A stretch of DNA of 64,000 nt from Patescibacteria group bacterium (GTDB lineage Bacteria; Patescibacteriota; Patescibacteriia; JAHIZJ01): the NCBI GenBank assembly GCA_028714495.1, contig JAQTMH010000003.1, positions 72,496 through 136,495 on the forward strand, given 5' to 3'. A model generated the notes under the pieces. The model did no database searches. It saw only the letters and a list, made by a program, of their open reading frames with translations, and was not told the origin of the DNA. Of this stretch, positions 23,032 through 31,789 are shown one piece after another (within the stretch, counting starts at the first letter, position 1; each line of letters starts with the position of its first letter). Position numbers and translations under genes: made by a program.

Positions 23032-23937
23032 TTAGAGACTAGGCCGGGTGTCTCGGAGATATTCCATGAAGTACTGGGCATCTCGAGTACAACCCTTGGG
23101 CAGTCGTGGAACATCGCGGCACAGCACTGGCCGACCCGAGCATTCGCCCACTGCCTGCCAGAGCTTGATGCTCTGATCCAGCACAAACCTGGAAAAATCA
23201 ATCACGCAGTCAGTCGGAATCGAAGCGCCGCTGATCGGATCGCCGAACGGCAGGCAATACGGCAAAGCCACTTCTGGCTCGCACGGAATCACCTGGCTAT
23301 CAACCCGACGACCTGCGGTCCTCCCGGATAAAGGAACGCCGACATAAAAGTCCCGCTCGCAGACCCAATCAACTACAGCTGGGTACTCGCGCACACCGAC
23401 CAGCTCCACCCATGGATGCTTGGCCAGAAGCTGGTTTTCCGGCCGGCCAATGATTATCCCGACGATGACTTGACTGACCACATAGCCATTTTCCCGCATT
23501 AGTTCGGTTATCCGAAGCAGGGTGCCGCCTGAATAGCAACCGTCGTCAACCAGTGAAATCGGACGACCCTTGGGTAAAGATCTGATTTGGTCAACTAATG
23601 ACTCGAAGCCGGCACGACGCGATTCGCCTAGAATCTGGGTCGTGCTGATATCAGCCACGCGGTTGCACTCCAGATGATAGGGCGTCTGGTTGTAGATCTG
23701 GTCGATCGAGACAACGATCGTTCCGGCGGCTCGGGCAGCAATCGCGGCTTGCAGTTTTCCGCTCAAATCAGCCAGTTCGATAAGTTCAAGCGGCCGAAAG
23801 ATCGTTCGCAGATAGCCAAGCAGCTCCTGCTGGAGGGTCCGGAAAAAGTCCGAACTCGGACAGCTGAAGCCAACACGCTCGGCCCATCTGCGCATGAGGA
23901 ATTCCAGATCCTCGGTTACGAGGTAGGGTGGCTTCAT
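23032..23937 (-). CDS. Type I phosphoribosyltransferase-like protein
   Basis: PRPP-binding-like motif ISLVDDGCYSGGTL; overlaps the upstream gene by 4 nt (ATGA). Confidence 0.7.
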   Translation of the reverse strand: MKPPYLVTEDLEFLMRRWAERVGFSCPSSDFFRTLQQELLGYLRTIFRPLELIELADLSGKLQAAIAARAAGTIVVSIDQIYNQTPYHLECNRVADISTTQILGESRRAGFESLVDQIRSLPKGRPISLVDDGCYSGGTLLRITELMRENGYVVSQVIVGIIIGRPENQLLAKHPWVELVGVREYPAVVDWVCERDFYVGVPLSGRTAGRRVDSQVIPCEPEVALPYCLPFGDPISGASIPTDCVIDFSRFVLDQSIKLWQAVGECSGRPVLCRDVPRLPKGCTRDAQYFMEYLRDTRPSL

Positions 23938-24773
23938 GCTCTCCTCCTTTTCCCTAAGGGTTTCGTGGAAATCCGCTGTAGGATTTCCAGAGCTCCAGCT
24001 GTGATCGGCTCCGTAGCCACAAAGTCAGCGACCGCCTGTAATTCAGCGGCAGCATTGCTGACAGCGCAAAGTAGGTCTACATGTCCTAAGAGCCTGGCGT
24101 CGCTCCTGCCATCGCCAATGGCGATCACCCTGTATCCACGATACTTCCGCCGTAGCACGGGAACGGCAAGCTCTTTGTCTAACCCGGCACTTGATAGAAT
24201 CAGCACACCACATTCAGCATTGGCATCGATGTCCACCAACTCGGTTATTCCCAGTCTATCGAGAACCACTTTCACGGTCCCGACCACGCTGGGATAAGCT
24301 CCATAATCAGGAGTCAGCTGGTTTGTCCAGACATGCAGGCCAAAGCCACAGAGACGGAATGGATTGATGACAATCATCGTGCCTGACCGCGCATCTAGCC
24401 CGCGTTGGTTCGACAGGAGATCAAGGTAGTATTCCTCAGTCAGGGCGAAGTCTGGAAAAGCGCTCCGGAGTGAAGATATAATCAGCTGCTTGACCGAATG
24501 CCAGCCGATTACCTGCTGTCGAGTAAGTAGGTGACTGCCGGACAGCGTCGAGACAATGGCTCCTTTTTCACTGACGATCGGACCGGTAAAACCGAATATC
24601 CCCATCCAGCGCCGAAGCGGCTCATACGGAGTATCCGAGTTTAGCCCGAAAAGATCGCCCGCCTCCATCATCTGTCGAACCAATAGTTTGAACGCGTCTA
24701 GCTGGATTGTCGGCTGATAATCCCGACCGATAAGACTCATGTCGAGATCGCAGAGAATCAGTCTGGGTCTCAT
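23934..24773 (-). CDS. HAD superfamily (IIB/Cof-like) phosphatase
   Basis: ILCDLDMSL, NSD, SEKGA, DK, AIGDGRSD, VSNA. Confidence 0.85.
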   Translation of the reverse strand: MRPRLILCDLDMSLIGRDYQPTIQLDAFKLLVRQMMEAGDLFGLNSDTPYEPLRRWMGIFGFTGPIVSEKGAIVSTLSGSHLLTRQQVIGWHSVKQLIISSLRSAFPDFALTEEYYLDLLSNQRGLDARSGTMIVINPFRLCGFGLHVWTNQLTPDYGAYPSVVGTVKVVLDRLGITELVDIDANAECGVLILSSAGLDKELAVPVLRRKYRGYRVIAIGDGRSDARLLGHVDLLCAVSNAAAELQAVADFVATEPITAGALEILQRISTKPLGKRRRA

Positions 24774-25783
24774 ATGGCCACCTCAGCCAGCGAAGAGATT
24801 AGGCGACCGGCCTGTTCCTGCATGGCTTCGATCAGCCAGACCCGTTCAGGATCTAGACAATAGTCACAACGGCAGGCGGCATAGGCACTGTAGTAGACCG
24901 CGCAGCACAATTCATAGAGCTGAGGCGTAAATATCCCCGCCTCAATCATCAGTTGCCGTGCCCTTTTGATTCTGCGCAAGGCGCCAAGATGGAATACAGA
25001 TCCCACAGTCTTTCTGATCTCCAATTCCTTGCGTCTGAGCGAGGCTTCGAGAGCGGCTAGGTCAACTGCGATGTTTCCGTCCGCCAAGCGCTCTTTGGAC
25101 CAAGGCAACGCCATCTTCGGGTCAATGAATCTGACCCGTGGCTGGTCAAGCGATTCGCTAACCAGCACATTGATAGCGACATTATCTTTCAGCGCCATCG
25201 AAGAAGACCAGCGTTCGAAAAACCAGGGAAAACGCTTTTGCAGCCGATCCAGCGCTGGGTTCAATCCGGTCATTTTCGCCCTTTCCAGATTTACCCGAAA
25301 CGCGCTCAGGCATTCCTGGAAAAACGTCTCTTGATCGTCTTGATTGCCGCGACTGGTCAAACTGTAGATCATTCTCAGCTTGTCAATCACCTGGCCGACG
25401 ATGTTGCCGATCTGAGATTGGCGTCGCTGGATGATTGGATGGTGACACGGCAGTGTTTCAAGCCATTCGCACAGGTCCAGGCAAATCGCCTCAAGCGTCC
25501 GTTCCCCCGCCACTTCCAGAAACAGCACTCCTTGATCATCCGTTTGGTTGACGAGTCGAAAATCAGGCAGAAACTCACCATATCGATCACCCAGCCGTGC
25601 CTGAAGAGTCCGATAAGCAGCCACATCGCCATTCAAGATGTCCAGCCGGCCGGCCTTCACCACGCCCCGGACCAGAAATGTGTCAGCGCCAGAAGCACCC
25701 TCTTGCCTGTCAAATGTCATCAAGCTGACTGCCGCTGATGCCGAACCAATCAAACCCTGCTTTGCTAAACCCAAGAATTCCAT
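24770..25783 (-). CDS. Kinase-like (APH/phosphotransferase fold) protein with C-terminal CxCxxC
   Basis: GASGA loop, VVK, LFLE, LKDNVAINVL, FIDP, DLA; SD GAGGAGG. Confidence 0.55.
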   Translation of the reverse strand: MEFLGLAKQGLIGSASAAVSLMTFDRQEGASGADTFLVRGVVKAGRLDILNGDVAAYRTLQARLGDRYGEFLPDFRLVNQTDDQGVLFLEVAGERTLEAICLDLCEWLETLPCHHPIIQRRQSQIGNIVGQVIDKLRMIYSLTSRGNQDDQETFFQECLSAFRVNLERAKMTGLNPALDRLQKRFPWFFERWSSSMALKDNVAINVLVSESLDQPRVRFIDPKMALPWSKERLADGNIAVDLAALEASLRRKELEIRKTVGSVFHLGALRRIKRARQLMIEAGIFTPQLYELCCAVYYSAYAACRCDYCLDPERVWLIEAMQEQAGRLISSLAEVAI

Positions 25784-25939
25784 GGTCTCCCCTCCTCGTT
25801 TGTTGGTCAGTTTTCAAAGAGCCATTATAGTCAATGAGTGACTAGCAAATTTATTCGAGCCGTTTCCTTTAGTCTTTCATCAAATCAATGCTTCAGGTAT
25901 TCAAGGGAATTTAGTATATATAATCCAGTTTGTCAATGC

Positions 25940-27058
25940 TTAAGAAACCAAAGCATTTTTCTGCAATATTATGGCTTGTTTTAACACCTCGAAACTGGCT
26001 GGCCTCAGTTCCCAAATCACGCACAATTTACCATCGCTATTGGCGCTGATCATCTCCAGAACCGTCTTGGCTGATTTGAAAACAAATCCGACTGGAATGT
26101 GGTCGTCAATTACCACATCCCTGACGATTTGCCGCTTGTACCAAAAATCCGCTTTGGCTTTTTTGAGCTGATCCGGGCTGGCTTCTTTCGTAAATTCTTT
26201 GGTTGTCAGAGAATCAGACAGGTGCACTGCTTTTATCCTTTTTAATATTTCGGGATTATCAGCAAGTTCCTTTTTAATTCTCTGGTCAATCGAATCCGGT
26301 CTATCACCTGCTTCTTGCCCTAACACCGCAACACTGTGTGCTGTATCAAAAGTAACACCTACTTCATTTAAGTCACGGTTTATAAATATTTCCCTAAAAT
26401 CCGCCAGCCGCCGCACGCCCCTATCAATCGCACTGCCGTTTTCAAGCGTTAATAGTTTGGCAAAACCAGAATCGCGCTTTATCAAGTCTTCGGTAAATTG
26501 CCGAACTGCGCTGATCACTGCCTGATCAGAATATTTCCGATCGCCAAATAAAATATCATCATAATCAATCTGATTCGCGTGCCAAGTAGCAACCCTGGCA
26601 TCCAGCTCGCCAGCGATATCTAACTCTCTAGTTAAACGTTCAATCATTACTTCTGGTTTATCGCCGCTGAAATATTTTCGGACATTGGCTGGAGTATAAA
26701 AAGTACGCAGCAATCTCGCCTGATCTTGCTTGTAAAAAGGTATCCAGCTGGCCCAGTCTGATAAGTGGACAGTTAAATTTCCCTGAAATCTGATTTTCTT
26801 CAGCGGATTTGGATCAAAATTCTCGGTAAAACCGATAAAATCCTGGATCCGAATTTCCATTCCGTCAAAGCCCTGTTCCAGGCACCAGTTTTCAATTCTC
26901 GACAAATCCCTGTTAAACTCCTTGATAATCAGTGAGTTGACTGACAACAGCTGAAATCTGGCCGACTTTTCTTTCTTCCAAAGCAAATCAAAGTCTGCTG
27001 GCGGTTTGAGCGCCTTGAACTTTTCCTCGATTAATTTGTCTTTGCTGGTTAATTCCAT
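25940..27058 (-). CDS. TIM-barrel metalloenzyme (xylose isomerase/AP endonuclease 2-like)
   Basis: GMEI, VHL, TWH, LEN, FDTAH, VHLSDS, DDH, WEL metal-ligand pattern. Confidence 0.8.
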   Translation of the reverse strand: MELTSKDKLIEEKFKALKPPADFDLLWKKEKSARFQLLSVNSLIIKEFNRDLSRIENWCLEQGFDGMEIRIQDFIGFTENFDPNPLKKIRFQGNLTVHLSDWASWIPFYKQDQARLLRTFYTPANVRKYFSGDKPEVMIERLTRELDIAGELDARVATWHANQIDYDDILFGDRKYSDQAVISAVRQFTEDLIKRDSGFAKLLTLENGSAIDRGVRRLADFREIFINRDLNEVGVTFDTAHSVAVLGQEAGDRPDSIDQRIKKELADNPEILKRIKAVHLSDSLTTKEFTKEASPDQLKKAKADFWYKRQIVRDVVIDDHIPVGFVFKSAKTVLEMISANSDGKLCVIWELRPASFEVLKQAIILQKNALVS

Positions 27059-27063
27059 ACAGG

Positions 27064-27822
27064 TTATTTGCTTAAAAGTTCAACCGCCCGTAAAGCAACC
27101 TTGATAGCTTTATCCACGCCTTGATCTGCCTCGGCTGAAGTCTCCAATTTATAAATTAAACCGGGGTCTTTCGCAATCTCGTCCAGCGGTTCAGTGGTAT
27201 TGACCGATAAAACCGTGCCGGCTTTTAAACCTCGCAGCTGGGCTAGCGTAAACACAGCCGAGCATTCCATTTCCGAACTCACTAGCTCGCCTTTTTTATA
27301 TTCAGGCAAATCCATCAGTTTTAAGAAATTATCAGTTGGCTCGTAAAATGAATCGTGCGTGCGGTTTGTGCCGATGAAATATTTAATATTTAATTCTTCA
27401 GCTGCTTGCTTCAAAGCCCGAAACACCTCAGGGTCGGGTTTGGCTTCGAATTCCTCGCCGACATATTCTTTGGTGGTGCCTTCCTGTCGGATCGCCTTAT
27501 CTGGAATAATTAAGTTCCCTGGAACAATGGTTTTCTTCAGGGCGCCGCAAGTGCCAATACGGATGAATATCTTGGCGCCTACCTTAGCCAGCTCCTCAAC
27601 GGCAATGGCCGCCGAGGGAGAACCAATGCCCGTCGAAGTGGCGGAAATTGGAATGCCTTTATATTTACCCGTGTAGGTCAAAAATTCCCTGTTAAAAACA
27701 ACCTCACGGGATTCGTCCCAATATTCGGCGATTCTCCTAACTCGAGCTGGATCGCCTGGAATCAAAACAATTTCGGCGATATCGCCTGGTTTAATTCTCA
27801 GATGTGGTTGTAAATTTTCCAT
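27064..27822 (-). CDS. Nucleoside phosphorylase (NP-I, Udp/DeoD family), substrate uncertain
   Basis: PGDPAR, NREF, STGIGSPS, RIGTCG, EME. Confidence 0.9.
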   Translation of the reverse strand: MENLQPHLRIKPGDIAEIVLIPGDPARVRRIAEYWDESREVVFNREFLTYTGKYKGIPISATSTGIGSPSAAIAVEELAKVGAKIFIRIGTCGALKKTIVPGNLIIPDKAIRQEGTTKEYVGEEFEAKPDPEVFRALKQAAEELNIKYFIGTNRTHDSFYEPTDNFLKLMDLPEYKKGELVSSEMECSAVFTLAQLRGLKAGTVLSVNTTEPLDEIAKDPGLIYKLETSAEADQGVDKAIKVALRAVELLSK

Positions 27823-27840: not shown

Positions 27841-28115
27841 AAAAAACTCTCATTCCTCGACAAGTTATTAAAAATAATAACTAGCTAAGGAACGAGAGTT
27901 TACTCCCGCGGTCCCATCCTTATTTCCGGTCTTTACCTTAAATCAGGCAACAACCAGACACTTATTTCAAGCTTCACGATGCGTGACCACCGTTCCCGGT
28001 TTTGACCGGGACTGCTTAAGAGGTGTGTTCAATGGTTTTCTGGGCCTGGCTTCCACTGTCCCAAGCTCTCTATTCAGCCAGAAATGGCCATTTACTATGC
28101 CTCTTTGTTAGCGCA
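27841..28115 (-). promoter_or_regulatory. T-box riboswitch, His specifier (CAC), with terminator/antiterminator
   Basis: Stem I has AGTA, AGAGA and GTGGAA motifs and GAA-CAC-A (CAC at 28025-28027). Stem II and III are present. T-box AATAAGGATGGGACCGCG lies at 27907-27924. Antiterminator is AAGGA-TGGGACC-GCGGGAG/CTCTCGT-TCCTT; terminator is AACTCTCGTTCCT...AGGAATGAGAGTT plus T-run. Confidence 0.92.
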
Positions 28116-28143
28116 TTTGAATTAAATTATCAAGGTAAATATA

Positions 28144-28188: not shown

Positions 28189-28222
28189 AAAAAAAGCCGT
28201 TGAGCAAGTTACTCAACGGCTT
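28189..28222 (-). terminator. Intrinsic terminator ending the hisS transcript
   Basis: AAGCCGTTGAG-TAACTTG-CTCAACGGCTT followed by a T-run; overlaps the hisS stop. Confidence 0.8.
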
Positions 28223-29600
28223 CAAGAAGTGAACGAATGTGCGAAATCAATTGGTCGCGCGGAACCGAGTGCTGTTTGCCTGCTGCGCCGAATGTGGTCC
28301 GGAGGTTCTTCACGGAAGCTTCGCCTCGGCTGAGCTCATCAGGACCGACCACGATCGCGATCGGTATCCGCTGAACATCGGCGTATTTGAACTGACGGCC
28401 GATGCGCGTTTCCTCACCCATGTAGAGCTCAGTATTCAGGCCCTCTCGTCTAAGCTCCGTGGCCAGCTGCTGGTAGACACCCAACTGGTTTTGATCAAAG
28501 ACGGTGACCAGAACCTGGGTTTTGCTAGGCGCTGTTCCAACCAAGCCGAGCTGTTCCAGGGCGGCGAAGAGCCGATCTACGCCGATCGAAGCACCGGTAG
28601 CAGGAATGCTGGTTTCGCTGAACCGGCCGATAAGTCCATCAAACCGTCCGCCGGAAAACACGCTGCCCCAGGTCGGCAAATCCAGAAGCCTCGTCTCAAA
28701 CACCGGACCGGTGTAGTAAGCCAGACCTCTGGCAATTGACAGGTCGATGATGAAACGCTCGGGCGGGATGCCTTGGGCTTTGAGTCCGGACAGAATCTGT
28801 TCCAGCTCGACGATCCCTTCGTCAACGGCCGAGCAGCCATTGAAGAAGCGCCTGAGCTGTTCGATCGTCTCAACCGGACTTCCTCCTGAAATGCCGACGA
28901 ATTCCATAATCCGATCAGCAATTTCCGGAGCCAAACCGATGCAGCGAGCACCGGCAGGTACTTCTCTCTGATCCACGCCTTCAGGCCCTTGCTTGGTCAG
29001 GGTGGCTTTGACTTCTTCGAGGCCGACTCTCTCGATCTTGTCTAGGGTCCGGAAGATGTCCGTGGCCCAGAAAGGATCGAGGCCCAAGAAAACCATCAAA
29101 GCGTTCAGGATCTTGCGGTTGCTGAAACGGATCAGGAAACGGGTAAGCCCCAGCTCAACCAAAGTGTCGTGGATGATGGCGATGATTTCAGTGTCAGCGG
29201 CCATTGAGCTGGTGCCGACAGTGTCAATGTCGAATTGCACGAATTCGCGGAAGCGTCCAGGTGCCGGTTCATCGCCGCGCCAGACCGGTCCGACCACGTA
29301 CCGTTTGAACGGTCGGGGCAGATCCGGGTACAGGGCGACAAACCGAGCCAGAGGTATGGTGTGATCGAAACGCAGTCCGGCTGGACGTCCTTCAGGATCA
29401 TCAAATCGGAAGATCTTAAGTTCGCTTGCATCAGTCTCTTCGCCGAGGAGAATCCTACGGTCTTCAATCGCCGGCGTCTCAATCGGTACAAAGCCATAGC
29501 GTTCATAAACGCGACGGATCTTCTCGATTAACGCTTGCCTGGCAATCATTTGAGCCGGCAGGTAATCTCGAAGTCCGCGCAGAAGTCGTGGTTCAATCAT
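28209..29600 (-). CDS. hisS: Histidine--tRNA ligase
   Basis: RGLRDYLP, ETPAIE, LRFDHT, GRFREFVQFDID, RGLAYYTG, GGRFDGL, GVDRL. Start moved to ATG 29600 because the track extension runs through a tRNA. Confidence 0.95.
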   Translation of the reverse strand: MIEPRLLRGLRDYLPAQMIARQALIEKIRRVYERYGFVPIETPAIEDRRILLGEETDASELKIFRFDDPEGRPAGLRFDHTIPLARFVALYPDLPRPFKRYVVGPVWRGDEPAPGRFREFVQFDIDTVGTSSMAADTEIIAIIHDTLVELGLTRFLIRFSNRKILNALMVFLGLDPFWATDIFRTLDKIERVGLEEVKATLTKQGPEGVDQREVPAGARCIGLAPEIADRIMEFVGISGGSPVETIEQLRRFFNGCSAVDEGIVELEQILSGLKAQGIPPERFIIDLSIARGLAYYTGPVFETRLLDLPTWGSVFSGGRFDGLIGRFSETSIPATGASIGVDRLFAALEQLGLVGTAPSKTQVLVTVFDQNQLGVYQQLATELRREGLNTELYMGEETRIGRQFKYADVQRIPIAIVVGPDELSRGEASVKNLRTTFGAAGKQHSVPRDQLISHIRSLLEAVE

Positions 29601-29638: not shown

Positions 29639-29716
29639 TGGGGGGCCGGACGGGAATCGAACCCGCGACCTCTTGATCCACAGTCAAGCGCTCTGACCAA
29701 CTGAGCTACCGACCCC
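29639..29716 (-). tRNA. tRNA-His(GTG), canonical with G-1:C73 and encoded CCA
   Basis: GGGGTCGG...CTTGA-CTGTGGA-TCAAG...GGTTCGATT...CCGGCCCC-CCA. Confidence 0.95.
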
Positions 29717-29741
29717 CAACACCACGAAGAGCCAAAAGACT

Positions 29742-29815
29742 GGGGCGAGACGGGAATCGAACCCGCGACCTCTTGATCCACAGTCAAGCGCTCTGACCAA
29801 CTGAGCTACTCGCCC
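29742..29815 (-). tRNA. tRNA-His(GTG) variant, no genomic G-1 and no encoded CCA
   Basis: D, anticodon and T arms are identical to the other copy. Acceptor is GGGCGAG/CTCGCCC with C73, C at -1, then AGT. Confidence 0.88.
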
Positions 29816-29858
29816 GTTTTCCCGGCCTGAGTTTGTAACAGACCGGGAACTTGTGCAC

Positions 29859-31478
29859 CTAGAGCGCCGCCGCAACCGCTTGCCGCAAAGCGCCGCTCTG
29901 GATCAGCTTCAACATCTTCTGATGGTCAGCCATGAGGAATCGATCATCATTCATCTCCTCGATGGCCGACCGGATCACCTGAAGGGCGACACTGGTACCG
30001 CGACCGAGCTTCGGATCATTGAGCGACTTCTGAGTCAGAGTAATGCCCTGGGCCGCTCCGATGAGCTCCCACGCGATCACCGCGAAAGCCAGCTCGATCA
30101 CCCGACGCATGTGCCGAGCCGAGATTGAAGCCATGCTGACATGATCTTCCTGGCCAGCTGAGGTCGGGATCGAAATCGCCTTGGCTGGATAGCACATTAC
30201 TGCGCATTCAGCGACTAGGGCAGCCACCGCGTATTGGGCAATCATTAGCCCGGTATTGAGGTCTGACTCACCAGCCAAATCAGCTGGCAAGCCATAGCTC
30301 GATTCCGGGTTCAGCAGAGCGTACAAACGAGAGTTCGAGATGTTAGCCAGGCACTGGGCGGCCAGTTTCATCTGCTCACTGGCATGCCCGAGCGGTTCTC
30401 CGTGGAAATTGCCACAAGACACTGCGACAAACTGCTCGCCAACTTGGAAGATCAGCGGATTGTCAGTCGCCGAGTTTGCCTCGATTGACAGAGCTTCCTT
30501 TGCCCGATCAATGATTTCTCTGACCGGGCCGGCCACTTGCGGATAGCACCGGTAAGAATAGGCGTCCTGAACGCGCGGCACCTTCAGATCATTCGGCTGA
30601 GACTTCACATGCTCAGCTGGCAAATCGACCAGTCGACAAGCATGGGTCATCCGCTCTGAACCAGCAGTCAGCTGACGAATCTCTGCTGCCACCTGGATCT
30701 GACCCGGATAGGGTCTGGCCAGGTGAACCCGTTCGTCAAACGCAGCTGTCTCACCGCGGATCGCTTCGAGCGAGAGCGCAGCTGCCAAATTCGAGTACCA
30801 AAGCAGAGACTCAAGGTCAGCCTGTCCCAGAATTGCCTGGGCCAGAATGAAAGTCGAACCATTGGTCAGAGCCATGGCTTCCTTGCCTTTGAGAACGATC
30901 GGCTGCAGATCAGCGGCAATCAGCGCATACTTGGCCGTCATGAATTCACCCTGATACCAGGCACGCTGTTCTTCCGATCCCATGAGCGTTGCCGAGACAT
31001 GCGCCAGTGGACAGAGATCGCCACTGGCACCGACTGAGCCGATCTGCGGAACATAGGGAATCACGCCGGCATTGTAGAGATTGACCAGACTCGCGCAGAG
31101 TTCAGGCCGTACGCCGGAATGCCCCTTGGCAAAGGAATTGGCCCGCAATACCAGTGCCAGTCTGACTACCTCGTCTGGGAACGGTTCGCCAAAACCAACG
31201 CAGTGAGCCGGAATGTAGTGCCTCTGATACGCGGTGATTTCTTCACCGGGAATCATGACGCACTTGCGACTGCCGCAGCCAGTGTTGAAACCATAGACCG
31301 CGTGATCTTGGCCGTAAGCGACCAGACCATCACGAAACTGACCAATCTCCTGCATTCTTTCCCCGGTGATTTCAACCCGGGGAAAAAGGTGAACGCCGGT
31401 AGCATCATCCTCACCCCGGGCTGCCAGAAGACAATCGGGCAAACCGAGATTTTCGCCATCGAGCCTGATATCGCGCAT
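29859..31478 (-). CDS. hutH: MIO-dependent aromatic amino acid lyase, histidine ammonia-lyase-like
   Basis: VYGFNTGCG, GSVGASGDL (MIO tripeptide ASG), QDAYSYRC, GNFHG, QEDHVSM; AAGGAG SD before ATG 31478. Confidence 0.85.
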   Translation of the reverse strand: MRDIRLDGENLGLPDCLLAARGEDDATGVHLFPRVEITGERMQEIGQFRDGLVAYGQDHAVYGFNTGCGSRKCVMIPGEEITAYQRHYIPAHCVGFGEPFPDEVVRLALVLRANSFAKGHSGVRPELCASLVNLYNAGVIPYVPQIGSVGASGDLCPLAHVSATLMGSEEQRAWYQGEFMTAKYALIAADLQPIVLKGKEAMALTNGSTFILAQAILGQADLESLLWYSNLAAALSLEAIRGETAAFDERVHLARPYPGQIQVAAEIRQLTAGSERMTHACRLVDLPAEHVKSQPNDLKVPRVQDAYSYRCYPQVAGPVREIIDRAKEALSIEANSATDNPLIFQVGEQFVAVSCGNFHGEPLGHASEQMKLAAQCLANISNSRLYALLNPESSYGLPADLAGESDLNTGLMIAQYAVAALVAECAVMCYPAKAISIPTSAGQEDHVSMASISARHMRRVIELAFAVIAWELIGAAQGITLTQKSLNDPKLGRGTSVALQVIRSAIEEMNDDRFLMADHQKMLKLIQSGALRQAVAAAL

Positions 31479-31554: not shown

Positions 31555-31789
31555 AGACTGACCTCCTCGTGTTTGGATGGTTTGTTTGCGTAGTGGGTAA
31601 TTACAAGATAATCCTGCCCGCTTAACAAGCAAGATTATTGTCAATGTACTAGCTTTTCCAAGAATAACTCATCTTATCACGGGCCCAGAATCACTGTCAA
31701 TTAGCCCTTATGCACATAGCTTACTACATAATATTCTCAATAAAAAAGGCCGGGGGTTCATACACCCTGACAAAGTACTGGGTACGATA

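Follow-up and report, generated by a model that had tools for sequence, protein, structure and literature searches.

The window analysed here, a 64,000-nucleotide stretch of the 1.17 Mb, 98.9% complete genome of a member of the Patescibacteria (G000), contains a minus-strand block in which a predicted ammonia-lyase, two tRNA-His(GUG) genes, a second histidyl-tRNA synthetase (HisRS2) and a T-box leader follow one another. In this direction the block comprises a promoter-like site (31671..31700), the lyase gene (29859..31478), an 11-bp hairpin between the lyase stop codon and the first tRNA gene (29819..29849; z -3.44 for a 53-nt stretch), the upstream tRNA gene, copy B (29742..29816), a 25-nt spacer (29717..29741), the downstream tRNA gene, copy A (29639..29716), hisS2 (28209..29600; 463 aa), an intrinsic terminator-like hairpin with a U tract (28193..28223; z -6.31), the T-box leader (27885..28118), about 90 nt beyond the end of hisS2, with its own terminator hairpin and U tract (27841..27901), and a run of genes (23032..27822) for a nucleoside phosphorylase, a TIM-barrel protein, an unassigned 337-aa protein, a HAD hydrolase and a PRTase-like protein. 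The promoter-like site (TTGACA-18-TAAGAT, 10/12, with TG before the -10 element) is a consensus match, of a kind found five times against 2.9 expected; a 14-bp inverted repeat between this site and the lyase (31608-31638) may represent an operator or a leader hairpin. The GC content of the lyase (0.57) and hisS2 (0.56) exceeds the mean of 811 long genes (0.47, sd 0.05).

The two tRNA genes had been described, in an earlier note made from the letters of the sequence, as twins that are alike except at the acceptor end, with different but fully paired stems, the upstream copy having C at -1 and lacking CCA, and all of this is borne out. The genes repeat with a period of exactly 100 nt and share a 61-nt identical run; their D, anticodon and T arms are the same and their loops are canonical. 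The extra D-loop base 20a, one of the characters of the alphaproteobacterial pair, is present (C) in both G000 copies and missing from the copies in the related genome G001. Copy B has C-1 (29816), G1-G2-G3 and C73 (29742), followed by AGT in place of CCA, and its acceptor stem is GGGCGAG/CTCGCCC, whereas copy A (GGGTCGG/CCGGCCC) has G-1 (29716) opposite C73 and an encoded CCA that ends at 29639. Three of the seven acceptor pairs differ between the copies, two of them altered on both strands and one on a single strand, which leaves a U.G wobble (4:69) in A, and all seven pairs are kept in both. The Rfam tRNA model scores B at 74.4 and A at 72.1 bits; energy folding recovered the anticodon arm of neither copy. 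An alternative structure of B, with a 5-bp stem and CCA taken from C72-C73-A74, was dropped because the 7-bp stem is perfect and the GGG start is that of the family. The twins are unlikely to be an assembly artefact, since a 99-nt public contig covers the B-spacer-A junction in both of two runs (from one study, one run possibly being the source of the assembly), although such contigs cannot settle the copy number. The acceptor stem of B (29743-29815) is identical to that of a tRNA-Leu(CAA) gene elsewhere in the genome (contig C1, 29722-29808), possibly by chance. The absence of both G-1 and CCA could be read as the decay of a non-functional duplicate; this is scarcely credible, given that the perfect stem of B carries changes on both sides, that its Rfam score exceeds that of A, and that its ends are typical of the family, the same type having been kept in G001.

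In the genome as a whole, CCA is encoded by 37 of the 48 tRNA calls and absent from 11, among them, as the earlier note had it, tRNA-Gln(TTG). A third, housekeeping tRNA-His gene (contig C1, 121249) has G-1:C73 and CCA. C73 is confined to the three His genes, and G stands at -1 in four of the 48 calls, two of which are His. One gene belongs to the CCA-adding/poly(A) polymerase family (PF01743), and an RNase P RNA scores 91 bits against a cut-off of 100. The search for Thg1-like genes that the earlier note had called for yielded no match to PF04446 in this 98.9% complete genome, and repair of G-1 by Thg1 was dropped as an explanation for want of a gene. Two further tRNA calls (contig C4, 122090-122386; contig C1, 5881-6071) have long insertions in the anticodon loop, possibly introns. 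The 3' end of the housekeeping tRNA-His gene coincides with the end of an open reading frame (contig C1, 119643-121324) that adjoins a DNA methylase-like gene; the start of this frame has what we take to be a serine-recombinase-like motif, and it is probably part of an integrated element.

The genome likewise encodes two histidyl-tRNA synthetases, both above the hisS cut-off and 23.6% identical; HisRS matches number two each in G000 and G001 and one each in five cassette-free members of the family. The product of the housekeeping gene hisS1 (contig C3, 183183-184442), in which FRRERPQAGRQREF aligns with FRHERPQKGRYRQF of Escherichia coli, retains the canonical motif-2 residues Arg116, Gln118 and Arg123 (E. 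coli numbering), whose roles are described in PMC4357726 and PMC10100707; this set is absent as such from HisRS2. The motif 2 of the latter, WRGDEPAPGRFREF, has Glu, Ala113 and Arg in place of Arg, Gln and Arg, with Glu111 at the first position and the Gln lost. HisRS2 keeps RGLxYYTG and GGRxD and reads LRFDHT, in agreement with the R-F-D-x-T signature from which a eukaryote-like or alphaproteobacterial class had been suggested for it. This assignment is upheld by the comparison with solved structures (3net, 237 bits; 6nhi, 220; the cytoplasmic enzyme 4g84, 199; E. coli 2el9, 108) and by a FastTree phylogeny of 83 proteins (midpoint root; three short or HisZ-like rows dropped), where the HisRS2 clade is sister (0.979) to a group with Paracoccus, Roseovarius, acidobacterial, Bacteroidota and planctomycete enzymes. 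The motif-2 Glu is restricted to four proteins (those of G000 and G001, P0124 and P0122; support 0.989), the nearest relatives having Lys, and where both partners are known Glu accompanies tRNAs with C72/C73 (G000, G001) and Lys accompanies tRNAs with U72/A73 (G281, G779). In Thermus HisRS, according to an excerpt of PMC4357726, the matching Arg115 forms salt bridges with the G-1 phosphate and contacts G1, and in E. coli C73 is read by Gln118 (PMC10100707, partial text); for the Glu of HisRS2, repulsion of the G-1 phosphate and recognition of the C73 amine are both conceivable roles. Separately, motif 2 is degraded (no GRxRxF) in canonical-type HisRS at eight loci (L311, L322, L323, L321, L313, L310, L308 and L144, in genomes G220, G107, G154, G739, G700, G046, G281 and G204) where other HisRS types are present; six of those others form a distinct clade (FRDGP..GRYREF), mostly adjoining G-1:C73 tRNA-His, and the inherited enzyme of these eight genomes may be a pseudo-synthetase.

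The absence of G-1 is linked to this type of synthetase. Among Patescibacteria-type loci, G-1 is found in 3 of the 25 tRNA-His genes that adjoin a hisS2-type gene (L091, copy A and the corresponding copy of G001) and in 20 of 20 that lie elsewhere; these rows were compiled by hand, kin among them are not independent, L051, which duplicates the G001 locus, was entered once, and the acidobacterial and similar loci as well as the metagenome or viral loci L229, L249, L250, L265 and L275 were left out. The acidobacterial and similar loci mostly have U-1, G1.U72 and A73, with G-1 opposite A or G in L067, L085 and L093. By this comparison copy B is the family-typical partner of the synthetase and copy A the exception. 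The locus L229, where a G-1:C73 tRNA-His lies beside a lyase and hisS2, counts against the pattern.

In our preferred reading, to which we give a probability of about 60%, B is a ribosomal substrate of HisRS2, A can also be read by the housekeeping synthetase, and the block as a whole is an accessory, likely horizontally acquired unit that supplies His codons. From the known behaviour of RNase P, A would retain G-1 because it pairs with C73, and B would be cut at +1 and then receive CCA; there being no Thg1, B would remain without G-1 in its predicted mature form. Under the identity rules, the housekeeping HisRS, with its motif-2 Arg, Gln and Arg, would charge A and the housekeeping tRNA, and B poorly, while HisRS2 would charge B. 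The lyase, by analogy with histamine islands, would drain histidine, and the extra synthetase and tRNA copies would keep His codons supplied. Two codes for the recognition of histidine tRNA thus likely operate in parallel in this cell. The earlier note had proposed a G-1-independent substrate as one of three possibilities for B, and this is now the best reading; its view of the HisRS class and of G-1 independence stands, but the accessory status of the pair, the canonical HisRS and the third tRNA-His had been overlooked. Against the preferred reading stand L091 and L229, in each of which a G-1:C73 tRNA-His adjoins a hisS2-type gene.

The acceptor rules of HisRS2 would have to differ from those of its best-studied relative. 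As reported in PMC3064791, the Caulobacter enzyme charges G-1-less tRNA, an added G-1 costing it 5-fold, A73C 3-fold and U72C 91-fold; since A and B both have C72, altered rules are predicted for HisRS2.

The cassette is scattered among other genomes. The lyase is matched in 18 of 401 genomes of the class, with a non-housekeeping HisRS within about 6.5 kb in 11 of the 18; nine further matches were found in the phylum, and four of the seven inspected with wide flanks have a non-housekeeping HisRS. A lyase lay within about 2 kb in 9 of 16 loci inspected out of an 80-locus set. Among metagenome and viral lyase loci, hisS or tRNA-His accompanies the lyase in 8 of 82; when metagenomes were searched with the lyase alignment, generic lyases came up, and the viral scans did not find a close cassette. 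Many of the large viral contigs L356-L390 have two adjacent tRNA-His genes with differing bodies, and in L356 and L383 one of the pair has U72/A73 and lacks G-1. Just past smpB lies the start of the cassette in G281 (L132, 6105-7115, where a tmRNA is also present) and in G779 (L510, 1400-1870), a possible integration site.

Twins recur as well. In G001, from another genus of the same family, the lyase is followed by a C-1 copy, an A-1 copy, a G-1 copy with CCA and a hisS2 at 71%, and a hairpin-like inverted repeat occupies the position matching that of the lyase-to-B hairpin. A gap of 100 N, with flanks that join without a break, interrupts the G-1 copy of G001, and for this reason the ends of that gene may derive from different copies. 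In G779, of another family, twins 109 nt apart share a 58-nt identical run and identical arms and have different stems (GGAGCCA/TGGCTCT and GGGGATA/TATCCCT), both with U72/A73 and without G-1 or CCA. A tandem pattern matched in 2 of the 401 class genomes is too narrow for twins of the G779 type, a genome outside that sample, and the count is therefore a lower bound. Common to all three sets of twins are two intact but differing acceptor stems, and G-1 is split between copies in two of the three; since neither G779 copy has G-1, such a split is not required and a host-readable copy is not fixed in the design. The arms of the G000 copies resemble those of the middle copy of G001 and the stem of A matches that of its last copy, which points to exchange between tRNA copies. 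The twins would probably have arisen by tandem duplication, after which repeated exchange would have made the arms uniform and left two intact stems in place.

These data bear on a simpler explanation, duplication for dosage only, in which the copies are equivalent substrates of HisRS2, the G-1 and CCA of A are incidental and access of the housekeeping enzyme to A is irrelevant. The G779 twins, with identical arms, different stems and neither G-1 nor CCA, agree with it, as do the single tRNA-His copy of the G281 cassette and the body shared by B1 and A of G001 on either side of the gap, which free exchange predicts. It is harder to reconcile with the arrangement shared by G000 and G001 (their genera differ and their arms have diverged), where a G-1:C73 copy with CCA comes last, after copies without, with the rarity of G at -1 in G000 (the 4 of 48 calls given above), and with G220 and G700, whose lyase clusters hold one G-1 and one G-1-less tRNA-His, each beside its own HisRS. 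Dosage alone we consider unlikely, if worth keeping in view; the persistent differences at -1 and in CCA could be neutral, these bases lying at the edge of the homology.

The T-box leader carries a His specifier, CAC (28027-28025), in a specifier loop GAA-CAC-A, an antiterminator bulge UGGG (27916-27913) and an alternative terminator hairpin with a U tract, and aligns with RF00230 from end to end (90.6 bits, E 1.5e-19), short of the gathering threshold of 93. Close relatives are found in G001, G281, G122, G742 and G779, and the phosphorylase, HAD and PRTase-like genes also follow His T-boxes in several genomes or related cassettes. T-box bulges pair with the NCCA end of the tRNA (PMC7583486, in excerpt), and TBDB sets the discriminator aside for His T-boxes because G-1 pairs with C73. 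As B lacks G-1, its C73 would be available for pairing with the last base of the UGGG bulge, and B might be kept as the preferred ligand, which when uncharged would report low histidine via HisRS2. Besides the specifier, bulge and terminator, conserved in the five other genomes, this idea draws on the restriction of C73 to tRNA-His in G000 and on the His T-box of the Tetragenococcus histamine plasmid NC_019354.1 (86.7 bits), which lies beside a G-1:C73 tRNA-His and has UGGA. It is nevertheless quite improbable: in G281, G779, G122 and G742 the sole C73 tRNA-His found is of the canonical G-1 type, the cassette tRNAs of G281 and G779 having U72 and A73; the six T-boxes are close kin and count as one observation; UGGG was also found in a glyS leader; and the plasmid is the single outside His control (n=1). 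The lyase of G122 runs off the end of its contig, so a cassette there may be unassembled. The proposal in the earlier note that B is a T-box ligand thus gains a His T-box downstream of hisS2 and loses its necessity, since the same T-box occurs where no B-type tRNA was found: B is possible as a ligand, not required.

In a regular-expression survey of 47 T-box loci in two Bacillota records, none was identified as His-specific, and the bulge base, read in 40 (seven did not parse), was never G; across 161 genomes the UGGG pattern gave mostly chance matches. Short T-box-like leaders with UGGA bulges precede thrS-like genes in Patescibacteria-type genomes (L336, L337, L342, L350), and in G107 a weak T-box match with a CAC specifier and a degenerate antiterminator (L338, 1501-1858) lies directly before a G-1 tRNA-His and HisRS. 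Literature searches, which left most subscription papers outside, returned nothing on T-box riboswitches together with the Candidate Phyla Radiation or on Patescibacteria together with histidyl-tRNA synthetase; a search on Patescibacteria and histidine ammonia-lyase returned nothing relevant, and none on a lyase-HisRS-tRNA cassette.

A fuller division of labour can be imagined, with the Glu of HisRS2 rejecting G-1 tRNAs, B serving HisRS2 only and being the preferred T-box ligand, and A feeding the host HisRS. Such orthogonal codes are distinctly doubtful; if true, they would amount to a circuit for sensing histidine that is both insulated and portable, and to a counterpart in nature of the cell with two orthogonal HisRS that has been proposed for engineering the genetic code.

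The lyase (539 aa) belongs to the MIO family, with the intact Ala-Ser-Gly triad at 151-153, and is nearest to histidine ammonia-lyase: the hutH model TIGR01225 is the best-scoring function at 471.4 bits, yet below its cut-off of 539.15, and aminomutase models score 303 and 280. It retains His and Glu at the positions matching those of HutH, which we take to be the substrate-specificity residues, and in the YGxNTGxG motif Cys replaces Phe throughout the subfamily. A stand-alone urocanase gene (contig C1, 80815-82458; L327; GC 0.58), above the hutU cut-off, lies at a distance from the lyase. Other cassettes repeatedly contain GNAT, M20, AstE/AspA and enolase-family genes. An enzyme, a tRNA and a synthetase laid out together, the sub-cut-off lyase with its Cys, the recurrent GNAT and M20 genes and the His in LRFDHT of HisRS2 invite the thought that the block makes a histidine analogue, such as beta-histidine via an aminomutase, and loads it on B for non-ribosomal use or recoding. 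We hold this to be very improbable, considering that hutH far outscores the aminomutase models and the HutH-aligned His and Glu are kept, that the genome has a urocanase above cut-off, that HisRS2 scores above the hisS cut-off, with RGLxYYTG and GGRxD preserved, that the T arm of B equals that of A, and that neither a GNAT nor an M20 gene is among the 12 window proteins scanned. In non-ribosomal carrier tRNAs, changes in the T stem or in the D/T loops weaken binding to EF-Tu. B has no such changes, its D, anticodon and T arms being the same as those of A, so that another suggestion of the earlier note, a non-ribosomal carrier, is unsupported.

As an identity element of tRNA, G-1 is nearly universal, and the loss described from one clade of alphaproteobacteria was regarded as a replacement event. 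The genomes considered here appear to hold both HisRS systems together, the G-1-independent one on an accessory block. Being identical but for the acceptor end, A and B form a matched pair provided by nature that makes direct tests possible, and this pair bears on the shift of a G-1-independent HisRS from U72/A73 to C72/C73, on whether G-1 hinders T-box binding, and on the orthogonality of HisRS2 and B in E. coli for the incorporation of histidine analogues.

Several known systems share features with the block. The histidine decarboxylase islands of Lactobacillus parabuchneri and Tetragenococcus (PMC5313534, partial text; NC_019354.1) are mobile blocks that likewise combine a histidine-consuming enzyme (here a predicted one) with an extra hisS, a tRNA and His T-boxes; in the L. 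parabuchneri island hisS has the T-box and is accompanied by a tRNA and an M20 peptidase, and the authors assume the same supply role for that island. Here, in contrast, an ammonia-lyase replaces the decarboxylase, the tRNAs are twins, the T-box follows hisS instead of preceding it, and the scan of 12 window proteins showed neither an hdcA decarboxylase nor an antiporter. In Tetragenococcus the tRNA-His pairs G-1 with C73 and the T-box bulge is UGGA, against C-1 in B and UGGG here. The leader resembles transcriptional T-box leaders (RF00230; TBDB) in its Stem I with specifier, antiterminator bulge and terminator, and differs from the usual ones in its Patescibacteria-type genome, its place before phosphorylase, HAD and PRTase-like genes, and its His specifier together with a bulge G complementary to C73. 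A lyase fold upstream of a eukaryote-like HisRS is also seen in the cytosolic HisRS of plants, which has a HAL-like domain at its N terminus (PMC7564348); that domain is fused and lacks the MIO triad, whereas the block has two separate genes and a lyase with an intact triad. Other tRNA-His without G-1 are known from phages and an alphaproteobacterium (PMC5389517, in excerpt; see also extracts of PMC9976931). The canonical pairing of G-1 with C73 is kept in A and in the housekeeping gene and not in B. A further counterpart is the G-1-independent pair of alphaproteobacteria such as Caulobacter crescentus (PMC3064791 and PMC3937112, in part), with whose synthetases HisRS2 groups, and which shares with it the loss of the motif-2 Gln, linked tRNA-His mostly without G-1 and the absence of Thg1. 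Unlike in Caulobacter, the HisRS2 pair is an accessory one found alongside an intact canonical pair, an arrangement that PMC3064791 put forward in 2011 as something to engineer; A and B have C72 and C73 (G1:C72 in B) in place of G1.U72 and A73; Glu stands where the Arg that binds the G-1 phosphate sits; and one linked copy has G-1. Each part of the block is of a known kind, and the combination of a linked His T-box with two systems of HisRS identity in one cell is a variant of them.
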